Assembly (NCBI GenBank): GCA_011049045.1
Contig: DSCO01000022.1
Location: 1,260-65,259, forward strand
Direction: 5' to 3'
DNA: 64,000 bases
Source of the DNA: Methanomicrobia archaeon
Lineage (GTDB): Archaea > Halobacteriota > Syntropharchaeia > Alkanophagales > Methanospirareceae
Shown: positions 47,029 through 64,000 of the stretch, one piece after another
Numbering within the stretch: position 1 is the stretch's first letter
Layout: every line of letters starts with the position of its first letter
The notes under the pieces: generated by a model
What the model was told of the DNA's origin: nothing
What the model saw: the letters and a program-made list of their open reading frames with translations, nothing else
The model's database searches: none
Program-made: the position numbers and the translations under genes

Positions 47029-47103
47029 GCTCCGCTGGTGTAGTTCGGCCAAGCATAAGGGCCTCTCGAGCCCTTGACCGGGGTTCAAATCCCCGGCGGA
47101 GCA
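47029..47103 (+). tRNA. tRNA-Glu (anticodon CUC)
   Basis: 7-bp acceptor GCTCCGC/GCGGAGC, D-arm with GG, anticodon stem AGGGC/GCCCT loop CTCTCGA, T-arm CGGGG-TTCAAAT-CCCCG, discriminator A, no encoded CCA. Confidence 0.8.
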
Positions 47104-47157
47104 TCTAACCAAAGGTTCAAAGCCCCCACTTTTAGACTGCTCCACAACCCGCACATT

Positions 47158-47520
47158 TCACTCGCGATTCAAATGTTCTTCCAGGCCCTGCCTCAGCCGC
47201 GTCCTGAATTCCGGCTTCTTCATCAGCGCCAACAAGACGGATACCATATCGAATCCCTCCTCCTCGGATCTTCTTATCTCATCGAGCAACAACAGCTGCC
47301 GATTCGCATATTCGCGCGCGTATTCTTCCGCCGCGAGTCCGCGATGGAGATAATAGCTGATCGCCTGCGAGCGACTGTCCCAGAGACCCTCTTCCACCTC
47401 TTTATCGAGCCGTTGCTTCGTCCGTGAAGTAAGGCAGATCGAAAACGTATCCTTAATGTCCCCAGCTTTTTTTCTCTTAGATTCGGCGCGTCCGCCCCGC
47501 GCCTCCCCGCCTTCTACCAT
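47158..47520 (-). CDS. ribbon-helix-helix (CopG/RHH-like) protein
   Basis: 120 aa; TFSICLTSRTKQRLDKEVEEG RHH-like N-terminal strand-helix. Confidence 0.45.
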   Translation of the reverse strand: MVEGGEARGGRAESKRKKAGDIKDTFSICLTSRTKQRLDKEVEEGLWDSRSQAISYYLHRGLAAEEYAREYANRQLLLLDEIRRSEEEGFDMVSVLLALMKKPEFRTRLRQGLEEHLNRE

Positions 47521-47720
47521 TTGGTTTCACCTCACCGATACCATTCTTTATCTTTGTTTATAAATATTGCTATTCAACAGATAAAAAGTATTTCGTTCAT
47601 GTGTAACAATACCATTTGTCCATACAAACACCATTTGTCTATTAGTTTTATATACTCGCCCCGCGCTAGATAATTCCTGTTGGGGTTCGGCTAACCCAAA
47701 CAAAAAGGAGGCATGTTGCC

Positions 47721-47993
47721 ATGGAAGACAAACCGAAAGAAACGGAAGTAATGGGACACCCTGGCATTGTAGGAATTGAGCTAGATGAGGGGCACATATC
47801 TCGTTCTACCCCAGAACACACCCACTCCCCGTCTAAGAAACCTCTAAGTCTGGAATCGCGGCAGGAATTGAAACAATTTGTTGAGAAATGGCGACTGTTC
47901 ATCGACGATCCTTCGCTTTTGGATCAGCCGATGCGCATGGTTGCAGAGTTCTTCAGAGAAGTTGCGATCGAGGAGGGGCTGATCGGTGAATGA
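47721..47993 (+). CDS. hypothetical protein
   Basis: 90-aa ORF in low-GC island, overlapping stop-start (atgaAAG) with next ORF. Confidence 0.4.
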   Translation: MEDKPKETEVMGHPGIVGIELDEGHISRSTPEHTHSPSKKPLSLESRQELKQFVEKWRLFIDDPSLLDQPMRMVAEFFREVAIEEGLIGE

Positions 47994-48280
47994 AAGACAT
48001 CGTCGTGCAAAAGTCGCTGCGGTGCTCGGTGATCAGGGACACGGTGACGACCAAAGACGGTGGGGTCACCGAAGAGCGCACCGTGAGGCTCGAGAACGAC
48101 ATTTTCGCCATCACACTAAGAGGGCAGCCCGACAAGCTGCCCTTCACCGAGGGCGAAGAGTACAGCGCCGAATTCCGCACGCCGCAGATGCAGCTACCCT
48201 TTCTTGACGAGACGACCGCCGAGAGCGTGCAGCCGGCGGACGCGAACGGCACGGACGGTGATATGGAAAGCGGTGAGTGA
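47990..48280 (+). CDS. hypothetical acidic protein
   Basis: 96 aa, translationally coupled to previous. Confidence 0.4.
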   Translation: MKDIVVQKSLRCSVIRDTVTTKDGGVTEERTVRLENDIFAITLRGQPDKLPFTEGEEYSAEFRTPQMQLPFLDETTAESVQPADANGTDGDMESGE

Positions 48281-48438
48281 CACGAACACGGCGGTGGGGT
48301 ACGGGCCTACTCCAAAGCGGACTCGTTTCACCTCCTCTTTTAGCTTCCCGCTGAGTTATCGCCCCCATAACTCCAGGGTTCTAAAGTCCGCGGAGAAATA
48401 GGTCCGGCCCCAGATTCCCGTTCGCATGGACCGGCGGT

Positions 48439-60845: not shown

Positions 60846-61021
60846 AGATGACCATCTGCGAGCGTGCAGAGAAGATCGAGAAGGAGTTAAACACGTTAAA
60901 TGCGCAAGGGATAACCTCAAAACTCATACAAGATCTTGGAGCCGCTCCTTTTGCAGTTATGGATTCTGAAGCCTTTAAGAGGTATCTGAGAGGAGAATTG
61001 GAAAGGGTGCTAATCAAGTAA

Positions 61022-61489
61022 GTGAAGAAAGTACAGTGCAGGCTTGCGCCGCAAGCTGGAACCGGCTCCGCGATCGACCGCAAGCGCAGAAAGGCAGCGC
61101 GCGCGAAATTTGCCGGAAATTTGGTGGCATTGGCGACGCCGCCCATCTCGCCGCACTCCCCGCGCCCGTGCGTTCGCAATCCTTCTGGCAACTTCGAGCT
61201 CGTGCTGCGTGAACGGCAACAGGCGGCTAAGGTCACCGTGCCCCACAAACTCGTCTGGCATAGCACGCCGAAGGTCGCCCGCATACAGGCGATCGAGCCC
61301 TATTATTCCAACGGGCAGCTGCTCTTCCTCGATACCTGGAACCGTGATTATCCCGAGCTCGTGGAGCAGCTGATCCCCTACCCGCTTGCAGCGCATGACG
61401 ACGGGCCTGATGCGCTCGCCGGCGCTATCGCGCTGATTCTTGCGAATGAGAAGGCGCAAAGGCAGGTGCTTATTCCGCGTGCGCGATAG
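61022..61489 (+). pseudogene. C-terminal fragment of phage terminase large subunit (psiM2 ORF9 / TIGR01630-type nuclease-domain end)
   Basis: ...EPYYSNGQLLF...YPELVEQLIPYPLAAHDDGPDALAGAI; no ATPase domain upstream. Confidence 0.5.
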
Positions 61490-62219
61490 CCCCTCTCGCT
61501 GTCGCGCTAACACTACCCGTTATTCCATCGCACGCTTTGAGTCTGTTCCGCGCGCGGCACTGCTGTCTGTCTCTGCCATGCCCACCGGCGCGCATTTCCG
61601 CCACCCGCCGCTTCATTTCCTCCGCTTTATCGCTTCGTCCTTCCACTTCACTGTTTCTTCCCCCGTAGTTCGCTTTCTCACAATCTTTATTCACAATTTG
61701 TAAGAGCCACCGCACACCCCAGATTGATTCCTGATCGCCCGTTTGACTTTGCGATTTAATAGCGGGTTTATTTGTTTACTGTATTTTTTCAATCGCCAAA
61801 ACATAGGTATTTAAGTACAAAATGCTTTCTAATAAATAAGAGAGGAAAAAAAGATGGAAATAAAAGCGATTGATAAGATGGTGGAAAAATCTTTAATAAC
61901 CTGTATAGATACGGGACTGTCAACTTGTTGGGGGTTGAAAATAGAACCATCAAAGTTAAACCGTGTATTGTGGAAATACGGTCTGATTTTCAAACTCAAT
62001 GACGGACTTGAAGACTTTTCAAAAGCAGAGACCTAGCGTGTAATATCTAATCCCTAGCCTAGTTCTAGGTATAGAAGCGCGATACGGGACACCGTTGTGG
62101 TGTCCCAAATTATGAGCGCTTACTCTTTGAGTCTATCCGAAGACATAGTGGCAGTATTAACAGCATTCATGTGAATAATTAATAAGAGTATTATACTTTT
62201 TTAAAGAGTCATCAGGGAA

Positions 62220-62408
62220 ATGAAACTGAGGAAGCTAATTACGGAACTTGAAACAGGTGGAGATTACGAACAGGCAAGGCAGGTAAGAGAAACATACCGA
62301 GGGAGCAAAAGAATGGTGGCACATTTGGGGATCTGGGAACTAATAACAGAGCTTGAAACAGGTGGAGATTACGAACAGGCAATTAAGGTACGAGAAGCAC
62401 GCAGATGA
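62220..62408 (+). CDS. 62-aa peptide with internal tandem repeat LITELETGGDYEQA x2
   Basis: ~90-bp DNA tandem duplication in AT-rich DNA. Confidence 0.25.
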   Translation: MKLRKLITELETGGDYEQARQVRETYRGSKRMVAHLGIWELITELETGGDYEQAIKVREARR

Positions 62409-62724
62409 ACAAATAATGGTAACAAATTCGTAAACATTTGACGAATGGGTATATAGTTATTACTTATTAAATCACCTATTCATTTTATGTTAACTACATT
62501 TTTCTTACATTTTATTTTCATACCACCGTCATCCACTACTTCATATATATCTTATACTCATTAACGAAGGGCTGATGTAGTGCTGCACAGTACCGAGTGT
62601 TTAAACAGCTTACTGCGCACGTGACACATTTGATTATGTGTGCATAATACGGGGGCGCAATCACCCCAGCTAGCGCATCCGGCCCGTCAATGAATGCCCC
62701 CCAAAAAATCGCTCAGAGAGATCT

Positions 62725-63066
62725 TCAATCGTTTTTTCGTTCGTATTCCATATCCCGCCCAGCCAGAACATGGGGTATTATTCCCGCTACCTGGTTTACT
62801 GACAGAATCGGGTATGTCTTAAACTTTATGTATGGTAAGTACTTCCAATTCTCCAGAGTGATCTCTTGTTCAGTCCCTTCACAGATGGCGTAACCGCCGA
62901 GTTCGCCACCAGCAAACATTCCCCAATCCAGAGTTATCCCCCGCTTTAAGTCCTCTTTGACCATGTTCACCATCATCGTCTGACTACGGATTTGCTCTTC
63001 AGGACTCTCAGACATTCTGGTCGTATCTATTTCCCAAATTGTTAGAAACTTTGCCATCTTTACCAC
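62725..63066 (-). CDS. hypothetical small alpha+beta protein
   Basis: 113-aa clean ORF; family not confidently recognised. Confidence 0.35.
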   Translation of the reverse strand: MVKMAKFLTIWEIDTTRMSESPEEQIRSQTMMVNMVKEDLKRGITLDWGMFAGGELGGYAICEGTEQEITLENWKYLPYIKFKTYPILSVNQVAGIIPHVLAGRDMEYERKND

Positions 63067-64000
63067 CTCCCTTTTTGGATTTTATCCACTACGTTGTAGA
63101 TAGGTAGGAGTCAAATAAAAACGTTATCCAAGTTTGGCGTCACCAAAACTTTTACGGATATAAAAGATGCATGTAGCGGCATGCTCTCAAATTTCTATGT
63201 TCCCTCACCACCTGTAAAAACGGTATAGTCAGTGTGCTGTACTGTTCGGAGCGATGTGCAGGTGGCGTAAATCCCGCCCACTCTTGCGCCGCATCATGTG
63301 GCATTCGCGGTGCCTAGCGATGCTCCGCTCTCGCCTCCGTGTGGCAGAGCTCGCGCACAACATCGTCTACGCGGTCGCACACGACGCGCTCGCCGGCGAG
63401 TTCGCGGTCTGCAACGGCCCGCCGGGGTGCACGCTCCGAAGCTGCGCTCAAGGCTCGCGCTGCTCGTGAAAAACGGCATGGCGAACGCATAACACCGTGC
63501 GGCGTTCGCTGCTTGCGGTAAGGCATCCGCGCGTGCAGCTCAGCCACCACTGCGCGCTTCACGTGTGAAGAAAAAAAGAGAAGAAACCTAACGTTTGTAT
63601 CCTGAACACAGCCCTCAACAATACCGCGGGTCGCTTGCCCGCGAAGGCGCTAAGGCGGTTCGTCTTTGCACGCATGCACGCATAGTAACACAGCCCGCCC
63701 AATTGTACACGGCGGCGCCGCGCCGTCAATATATCCGTCGGCACGTACTAACATTTGCCGAAACTTTTATAGAGAATGTTAACGAAGTATTGAGCACAAG
63801 CAGTTTAATGATGGGAAAATTTAGATAACGGGGAGGTAACCCAATGCCCAAGGAAACAACCCGGAAGGTTTCCCGCTCCAAACGGGAAAAGATGAATTAC
63901 ATCAGGTCCTTTCTTACCTTGGTTGGTACCTTTATAACTTGATGAGAAGGGCATGTCAAGGGGGTTGCGCATCGCCTGCCGCTCACGCAGGGCGTTCGCC

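Follow-up and report, generated by a model that had tools for sequence, protein, structure and literature searches.

Gene content and base composition of the region

The DNA considered here is a stretch of 64,000 nucleotides (contig DSCO01000022.1 of assembly GCA_011049045.1, positions 1,260 to 65,259; hereafter, the window) from an archaeon of the anaerobic methanotroph group 1 (ANME-1). We describe its part from 47 to 64 kb, which begins with a glutamate tRNA gene, tRNA-Glu(CUC), placed after the core gene atwA, and in which a preliminary description had recognised a mosaic of accessory genes. Blocks B1 to B5 can be delimited in this region (table 1): a gene module typical of integrative elements (B1), a small open reading frame (ORF) followed by the start of an ArsR regulator gene (B2), a 4.4-kb insertion (B3), an operon encoding a family-B DNA polymerase (B4) and the remnant of a tailed virus, with a gene entirely devoid of cytosine (B5). 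Loci and contigs used for comparison are designated by L numbers.

The host is identified as an ANME-1 methane-oxidizing archaeon because the protein encoded by atwA (45182-46900) is 94-95% identical at the amino acid level to its counterparts in metagenome-assembled genomes (MAGs) of ‘Ca. Methanospirareceae’ (ANME-1c), versus 76-82% for other ANME-1 and 42-46% for Methanothrix. The window is the reverse complement of the JGI metagenome contig 3300022547 Ga0212126_1000123 (70,338 bp), and the analysis was extended 4.95 kb beyond the window, to the contig end. An identical gene order is displayed by a MEGAHIT (k141) contig (ENA ERZ27245514, 69.6 kb), and is kept on two contigs of a SPAdes (NODE) assembly (ENA ERZ1742330), broken only within the DUF1670 repeat.

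Measured over 1-kb intervals, the GC content is 0.580±0.021 (minimum 0.537) at 1-47 kb and 0.524±0.052 (minimum 0.422) at 47-64 kb (Mann-Whitney p=6e-5). The composition of the region is thus not uniform, and the drop in GC initially reported is real on average. It is not general, however: blocks B3 (0.484) and B5 (0.496) are low, whereas B4 (0.596) is not. The two AT-rich islands first noticed by eye were recovered, with a GC content of 0.33-0.35 at 52.6-53.1 kb and of 0.37-0.41 at 61.6-62.7 kb. At least six genes of the region are truncated, including, as first described, C39-like, ArsR and terminase (PHROG 38) fragments, to which a DUF1670 fragment can be added. At E≤0.1, the tRNA was the sole Rfam match.

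Table 1. Features of the 47-64 kb region and of the DNA just beyond it. Positions are those of the window; aa, amino acids; nt, nucleotides; RHH, ribbon-helix-helix; wHTH, winged helix-turn-helix.
Feature	Position	Strand	Block	Evidence or remark
tRNA-Glu(CUC)	47029..47103	+		ARAGORN; Rfam tRNA, 55.6 bits; left anchor of the variable region
26-nt flank after tRNA	47104..47129			common to L002, not L001; blastn end points and alignment
Block B1	47130..50379		B1	integrase-proximal module of an ANME-1 integrative element, without its integrase
RHH-like gene, 120 aa	47158-47520	-	B1	
90-aa ORF	47721-47993	+	B1	
96-aa ORF	47990-48280	+	B1	
Zinc finger, 115 aa	48439-48786	+	B1	
Zinc ribbon, 106 aa	48783-49103	+	B1	
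wHTH protein, 423 aa	49132-50403	+	B1	Pfam HTH_5/HTH_20 in N-terminus only
Block B2	50380..50989	+	B2	71-aa ORF (50397-50612) and 5' part of ArsR#1 (50692-)
Block B3	50990..55426		B3	4.4-kb insertion between ArsR#1 and Rad51-like gene; GC 0.484
Aberrant ArsR#1 tail	51018-51167		B3	90-nt tandem duplication (83% identical); repeat analysis
ArsR#2 fragment	51360-51565		B3	partial copy of ArsR#1
DUF523/2-thiouracil desulfurase gene	51757-52134		B3	Pfam; apparently whole cargo
C39 fragment	52252-52560		B3	weak, E 2.4e-4
DUF2628 gene	52571-53038		B3	GC 0.34; apparently whole cargo
DUF1670 C-terminal fragment	53128-53619		B3	Pfam; repeat that breaks the SPAdes assembly
UbiA prenyltransferase gene	53907-54839		B3	Pfam; apparently whole cargo
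ArsR#3, complete	55094-55399		B3	divergent paralogue, 43-48%
Block B4	55427..58810	+	B4	core operon and 37-nt 3' tail
Rad51/RadB-like gene	55477-56268	+	B4	Pfam
DUF8156 gene	56258-56548	+	B4	Pfam
Family-B DNA polymerase (PolB) gene	56545-58773	+	B4	Pfam
Block B5	58811..64000		B5	ANMV-1-like tailed-virus remnant and AT-rich filler; GC 0.496; runs past window end
C2H2 zinc-finger protein, 87 aa	58854..59117	-	B5	Pfam zf-C2H2, E 8.3e-6
Cytosine-free run, 355 nt	59684..60038	+	B5	encloses ribosome-binding site and intact 105-aa ORF (59714-60031), ASCH (PUA-like) fold
Small viral ORF, 87 aa	60119-60382	+	B5	69% aa to L093; 48% to ANMV-1 AJP62026
Small viral ORF, 160 aa	60363-60845	+	B5	66% aa to L093; 28% to ANMV-1 AJP62025
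TerL C-terminal fragment, 155 aa	61022..61489	+	B5	PHROG 38, E 9.5e-16, profile positions 625-713 of 760; no ATPase domain
AT-rich stretch	61600..63100		B5	small ORFs only; composition, repeats, ORF list
62-aa ORF of two 35-aa repeats (ELITELETGGDYEQA...)	62220-62408	+	B5	no family match
110-aa ORF	62725-63057	-	B5	in AT-rich stretch
Phage_integrase piece, 165 aa	~64.3-64.8 kb	+		~300 nt past window end; E 8.8e-12, profile positions 20-143 of 172

The junction at tRNA-Glu

The succession of atwA and tRNA-Glu(CUC) is kept in all of the approximately 42 ANME-1 and Syntrophoarchaeum loci compared, and the tRNA first reported at the edge of the region was detected by both ARAGORN and Rfam. Downstream of the tRNA, no protein of the 47-64 kb region was found within 10 kb in any of these loci, even where atwA is 94-95% identical, and the genes that follow the tRNA-Glu of relatives are likewise missing from the window. 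At least three other arrangements exist, in addition to singletons, with gyrA (seven loci), a 152-aa gene (five loci) or a tRNA-Asp group (four loci) downstream, none of them resembling the window. The two closest relatives, L001 and L002, differ from the window and from each other. Indeed, blastn homology ends at 47103 with L001 (90% nt identity over atwA-tRNA) and at 47129 with L002 (85% nt), so that the gene order comparison proposed in the preliminary description agrees with a break next to the tRNA. The alignments place the true breakpoint at approximately 47130, just outside the tRNA and not within it.

That this tRNA can receive foreign DNA is indicated by another ANME-1 genome. The single-cell genome AG-394-G06 (L011) has 3.85 kb of DNA inserted immediately after tRNA-Glu(CUC), which L008 lacks; on both sides of this insertion, the 3' end of the tRNA recurs as a direct repeat of 19 nt, ATCCCAGGCGGAGCATATT (L011 11736-11812 and 15643-15661). 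With such a clean duplication on either side, tRNA-Glu(CUC) is a genuine attachment (att) site in this order. The L011 insertion carries a methyltransferase and two secreted proteins, and no integrase was detected in it by profile search. Taken with the gene order of relatives, these observations support the view that the region studied here is accessory and tRNA-anchored.

An integrative-element module and a virus remnant

Block B1 is 81-87% identical at the nucleotide level to L087/L088, in which the same order is found directly after a 368-aa tyrosine integrase; in the window, the tRNA occupies the position of this integrase. More generally, an integrase was present 0.4-3.5 kb upstream in all seven metagenome loci having a wHTH homologue at least 62% identical and enough flanking sequence. 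Because homologous loci carry an integrase beside the same gene order, B1 is the integrase-proximal module of an ANME-1 integrative element, minus the integrase and the far end.

Among the genes that the preliminary description had named in this block, the wHTH gene was recovered by Pfam. The RHH assignment is weak and comes through the 149-aa homologue in L087 (RHH_1, E 0.006), and the ClpX-type zinc finger is likewise weak, its 25.6 bits being below the Pfam cut-off of 27. Over 370 proteins, some of them fused to HNH, make up the large family of the wHTH protein, in which motifs are strongly conserved. No Pfam model and no clear structural relative were found for the approximately 300 C-terminal amino acids of the protein, which gave weak TBP-like structural matches only, and no member of the family is present in IMG/VR or in the phage and plasmid reference sets. 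The window copy also contains repeats (49194-49222, 49316-49344 and 49555-49583), and an internal duplication of approximately 120 nt adds approximately 40 aa near its N-terminus.

Block B5 is of a different nature. Three of its genes, a fragment of the terminase large subunit (TerL) and two small ORFs, match in conserved order (65%, 48% and 28% aa identity, respectively) those of ANMV-1 (KP703175.1), a putative tailed virus of methane-oxidizing archaea that bears a diversity-generating retroelement (Paul et al. 2015, PMC4372165). The virus-like genes noticed at the outset are genuine. The TerL fragment is 70% identical to the C-terminus of the full 473-aa TerL of L180, itself 60% identical to that of ANMV-1, and represents only the last ~90 profile positions of a complete large subunit. 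The 87-aa and 160-aa ORFs are of normal base composition and adjoin the cytosine-free gene in other contigs too. No capsid, portal or tail gene was detected by PHROGs or Pfam, as the 55.4-64 kb frames gave only polymerase, terminase and families with no assigned function, and scans of IMG/VR with the wHTH protein, PolB, the TerL fragment, the 160-aa ORF and the cytosine-free ORF retrieved no relatives. From the matches to ANMV-1, B5 is a deleted copy, or remnant, of an ANMV-1-like head-tailed virus.

An insertion and a displaced core operon

The preliminary description held that core genes stop at atwA. This does not hold for block B4, in which the Rad51-like/DUF8156/PolB operon (55477-58773) is core and interrupts the accessory DNA over 3.4 kb. 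Its composition is core-like (GC 0.596, GC3 0.70-0.77), and PolB identity decreases regularly with phylogenetic distance, from 92/88/88/85/83% in Methanospirareceae to 61-66% in other ANME-1, approximately 50% in other Halobacteriota and approximately 45% in Thermoplasmata. In L084/L085, the same operon is flanked by DnaK/MatE on one side and, on the other, by a 301-aa gene, FEN1 and genes for ribosomal proteins (rpl11/1/10); the contigs concerned are not those bearing atwA and tRNA-Glu. Homology of B4 ends at the PolB stop codon with respect to L084/L085, and 37 nt later with respect to the closer L099. As PolB identity tracks phylogeny and the context in relatives is a core one, B4 is the ordinary, vertically inherited cellular operon, severed from both of its ancestral neighbours. 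PADLOC returned, besides generic wHTH matches (Csa3/CasR, E 1e-6 to 1e-8), a single ‘HEase’ (homing endonuclease) match (PDLC03707, E 2.7e-32) to one frame in 55.4-64 kb; this match is probably PolB, since Pfam detects no homing-endonuclease domain.

Block B2 links the region to the ancestral surroundings of this operon. The Rad51-like gene of L084 is immediately preceded by a 57-aa ORF and an ArsR gene, with L084 8241-8858 corresponding to window 50380-50989 (79% nt, blastn), and ArsR#1 is orthologous to the L084 ArsR (81% aa identity). Because L085 has neither the 57-aa ORF nor ArsR, B2 is probably accessory and element-derived. Also upstream of the PolB operon in L084, a 60-aa DNA-methylase fragment (L084 8060-8242) separates MatE from the pair formed by the 57-aa ORF and ArsR. 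This fragment is probably what is left of another element, in which case the PolB locus too would have been an insertion site.

The stretches homologous to L084 are spaced by 4437 nt in the window, against 32 nt in L084 itself, which makes B3 an insertion. The paralogous ArsR genes first reported are three in number: ArsR#1, whose 3' end is replaced in B3 by an aberrant tail, the ArsR#2 fragment and the complete ArsR#3. The duplication in the tail of ArsR#1 encodes the peptide ...AITSIGCGTS... twice. A 42-nt direct repeat (86% identical) is found upstream of the ArsR#2 fragment (51332-51373) and upstream of UbiA (53780-53821), and might represent either a scar left by recombination or a promoter that was duplicated. 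Two copies of DUF1670 lie directly downstream of tRNA-Glu in another ANME-1 MAG, WYZ-LMO13 (L049 1519-2807), and DUF1670 may itself be linked to mobile elements.

Integrase and attachment sites

As in the preliminary description, in which no integrase was recognised, the Pfam search of all 162 stop-to-stop frames of at least 55 aa (47-64 kb) detected neither integrase nor transposase. The search of the window for copies of the tRNA 3' end was negative, whether for an exact match of at least 12 nt or for a 23-nt match with up to three mismatches, again in line with what had been noted by eye. Over the window and the 4.95-kb extension (including blastn-short), the only match was one of 12 nt, at chance level (E 0.48), in an oxidoreductase gene.

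The sole integrase identified is the 165-aa piece located past the window end (table 1). It has no N-terminal domain, and its LLGH motif in the next frame suggests that this remnant is frameshifted. No similarity was detectable between this distal piece and the integrases of B1-type elements. It is followed by epimerase fragments, the oxidoreductase gene, a UPF0175/PIN pair and an IS1 transposase at the contig end. An integrase split in the manner of Sulfolobus spindle-shaped viruses (SSV), initially considered conceivable, is not supported: the window has no integrase-like frame, the distal remnant covers catalytic-domain positions only, and the tRNA is separated from the first gene by 54 nt, which therefore leaves no room there for an integrase fragment.

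Origin of the region

The accessory region of the preliminary description is not one continuous stretch but a composite, in which a core PolB operon, displaced, and a 4.4-kb insertion stand beside what is left of two or more unrelated elements. Its view of the elements as old and decayed is well founded, given the six or more truncated genes, the absence from B1 of the integrase that its homologues carry, and the restriction of integrase sequences to a 165-aa piece past the window. The explanation that we favour, with a probability of roughly three in four, is that of a strain-specific island in an ANME-1c chromosome, built up as mobile elements repeatedly inserted, recombined and decayed at tRNA-Glu, whose 3' side varies throughout ANME-1, and thus of a graveyard of elements rather than a working one.

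From the blocks, breakpoints, homologies and truncations observed, we infer a succession of events in which mobile elements would have inserted both at tRNA-Glu and beside the PolB operon, and recombination between such elements would have joined the two loci. Deletions would then have removed the integrase, the att sites and most of the viral genes, leaving nothing able to excise. The genes that are intact (wHTH, ArsR#3, UbiA and the cytosine-free ASCH gene) may possibly still be expressed. The region shows tRNA-Glu(CUC) to be a hot spot of integration in uncultured ANME-1; it also shows how mobile elements can shift a core replication operon away from its neighbours.

Several points weigh against this explanation. 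The window contains no att repeat, integrase or intact element, so that insertion at the tRNA is deduced by comparison and not directly seen, and the break lies some 26 nt past the tRNA, after a flank common to L002, rather than inside it. The joining of the tRNA-Glu and PolB loci by recombination is a model whose reciprocal junctions were not seen. On the right, the region can be followed only as far as the IS1 in which the contig terminates, 4.95 kb beyond the window; a second PolB copy may exist in this genome, and overlapping read sets possibly lie behind all three assemblies.

The main rival, which we consider unlikely, is a composite element that captured the Rad51-like/DUF8156/PolB genes by imprecise excision, in the manner of specialised transduction, and re-integrated at tRNA-Glu. 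The whole of the DNA from 47.1 to approximately 65 kb would then form a single element, whose integrase lies at the right-hand end, and a second, native PolB locus would be present in the genome or would have been in the past. The remnant upstream of the Rad51-like gene in L084 (methylase fragment, 57-aa ORF and ArsR), homologous to B2, is consistent with this scenario, since an ancestor had an element there; so are the precise cuts at both ends of the operon and the presence, on the + strand at the distal end, of the integrase remnant. However, this integrase bears no detectable similarity to those of B1-type elements and has no att repeat near it, and B1, from an integrative wHTH element, and B5, from an ANMV-1-like tailed virus, are of unrelated types. 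Moreover, the divergence of PolB from that of relatives (86-88% nt) is at orthologue level, and a non-exhaustive search of the same sample yielded no second PolB.

An intact or inducible provirus or integrative element residing in tRNA-Glu, possibly with an SSV-type split integrase and able to excise, is far less probable. Such an element would fit the position next to a tRNA that serves as an att site elsewhere in ANME-1, and some genes, including the 423-aa wHTH gene and small ORFs, are whole. Nevertheless, the lack of any integrase-like frame in the window, the 54 nt between the tRNA and the first gene and the lack of an att repeat, even at three mismatches in 23 nt, all argue against it, as do the truncation of the terminase, integrase, DUF1670, C39 and ArsR genes and the absence of capsid, portal and tail genes by Pfam or PHROGs.

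Equally improbable is a chromosomal region that evolves fast but is otherwise ordinary, in which mobile elements play no part and the patchy GC content is owing to intergenic DNA and lineage-specific genes. UbiA, DUF523 and ArsR are indeed plain cellular gene types, and the window yielded no defence system or transposase; yet B1 is homologous to integrase-bearing elements, the terminase and other genes are common to ANMV-1, an integrase remnant and an IS1 lie just outside the window, and truncated genes are dense throughout. As for an assembly chimera, in which repeated mobile-element sequences would have caused unrelated genome parts or strains to be joined, it is the least probable of all, for although DUF1670 and IS1 repeats break other assemblies and close relatives have contigs that stop 1.4-2.6 kb beyond the tRNA, the MEGAHIT and SPAdes assemblies from other accessions reproduce the atwA-tRNA-B1-B2-B3 and B3-B4-B5 junctions, and the breakpoints fall at gene ends, not in repeats.

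A cytosine-free ASCH gene

Within B5, a run of 355 nt without a single cytosine coincides exactly with a purine-rich ribosome-binding site and the coding sequence of the 105-aa ORF. The next longest run lacking any one base in the whole window is 46 nt, and the chance probability of the cytosine-free run is approximately 2e-52 at a cytosine frequency of 0.285. As the sense strand has no cytosine, the protein lacks Ala, Pro, His, Gln and Thr.

This composition is shared with homologues. Cytosine-free runs of 367 nt in L093 (323-689; protein 85% identical) and of 375 nt in L180-182 (L180 804-1178, L181 420-794 and L182 746-1120; proteins 75% identical) contrast with a cytosine content of 21-27% in the neighbouring genes of L093 and of 30-31% in the rest of the L180-182 contigs. 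The window and L093 genes differ at 52 of 318 nt, with synonymous changes in 28 codons and non-synonymous ones in 16, and in no case is a cytosine created; likewise, none of the 62 four-fold GTN/GGN third positions is a cytosine. The family comprises 75 representatives at E<1e-3, including ten close homologues (70-86% identity), nine of which lack Ala, Pro, His and Gln in the aligned region, and seven Thr as well. In a distant homologue (46% identity), the gene contains 4% cytosine versus 19% in its flanks.

The 105-aa ORF conforms to the ASCH β-barrel fold; PF04266 (ASCH) was matched by only one of 33 family members (E 0.016). In the GxKxxExR motif, the Arg (R25) is invariant across the family, whereas the Lys and Glu positions are not conserved. 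One member, P0261 (256 aa), is fused to a YAcAr/SLOG domain (PF10686, E 1.5e-6). SLOG-type nucleotide-binding domains often occur in conflict systems. No other ASCH gene whose coding strand lacks cytosine is known to us, and the literature searched contained no description of such a gene or of such a composition strategy, nor any link between ASCH and viperin.

Two other origins of the run were considered and rejected. C-to-T hypermutation does not agree with a T content of only 26-28% for 42-46% of G, nor with a run kept across diverged homologous loci. A contaminating synthetic ‘G-less cassette’ is at odds with an intact gene from a natural protein family found in several independent metagenomes. 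A 166-nt G-free run is also present in ANMV-1 (L183 13212-13377); it lies in an unannotated gap after the TBP cluster, appears to be non-coding and is unrelated.

The likeliest explanation is that, in a clade of viral genes, selection keeps the sense strand free of cytosine, as the comparison of homologues appears to indicate; a persistent strand-specific mutational process is the alternative. We further propose, more tentatively and with less than even confidence, that the gene is kept wholly cytosine-free because its composition is itself an adaptation, allowing the message to be made or to survive under an attack directed at cytidine, and that it is a counter-defence or take-over gene. Candidate attacks would include depletion of cytidine triphosphate (CTP), chain terminators of the viperin type (ddhCTP, short for 3'-deoxy-3',4'-didehydro-CTP) and a cytosine-specific RNase or deaminase, possibly the product of the gene itself. 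This hypothesis draws on the ASCH/YqfB fold being that of a hydrolase of cytidine derivatives, Escherichia coli YqfB being an ASCH-domain N4-acetylcytidine amidohydrolase (PMC6972931, PDB 9kyf). If the composition is adaptive, a virus may shield one key message from cytidine-directed attack by writing it without cytosine. The cytosine-free ASCH gene merits separate study.

Comparison with known systems

As an island, the region is ordinary and belongs to a well-known class, that of tRNA-linked islands of the tyrosine-recombinase type. As in these islands, it lies directly 3' of a tRNA and is absent from the same site in close relatives; its composition is patchy and atypical, it combines regulators (wHTH, ArsR and RHH) with cargo genes and pseudogenes, and the att function of its tRNA-Glu is proven for another ANME-1 genome. 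Unlike them, it has neither integrase nor att repeat, it contains at least two unrelated elements, it encloses the PolB operon and its break is situated approximately 26 nt past the tRNA.

With the ANME-1 integrative elements L087/L100 and L089/L105, B1 has in common the order RHH (on the - strand), 90-aa ORF, 94-96-aa ORF, 115-aa zinc finger and wHTH, at 81-87% nt identity. These elements bear a tyrosine integrase of 368-465 aa beside the module, whereas the window does not, and L087 has a DUF5131 gene in place of the zinc-ribbon ORF. They presumably fall among the ‘unclassified MGEs’ (mobile genetic elements) of the ANME-1 mobilome (bioRxiv 10.1101/2022.07.04.498658).

The protein of the cytosine-free gene is only distantly comparable with E. 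coli YqfB and other ASCH proteins, from which it differs by a sequence identity of 8-16%, a non-significant Pfam ASCH match and a motif Lys that is not conserved. ANMV-1 has no homologue of this gene. It does contain homologues of TerL and of the 87-aa and 160-aa ORFs, in the same order relative to TerL as in the window, where approximately 2 kb of virus-derived DNA is left, with no capsid, tail, diversity-generating retroelement, TBP or nrdD genes. Finally, ANMV-1 was described as a free viral genome without integrase, whereas the remnant in the window is chromosomal. The presence of ANMV-1-like DNA inside an ANME-1 chromosome constitutes independent support for the host that had merely been hypothesized for ANMV-1 (PMC4372165).

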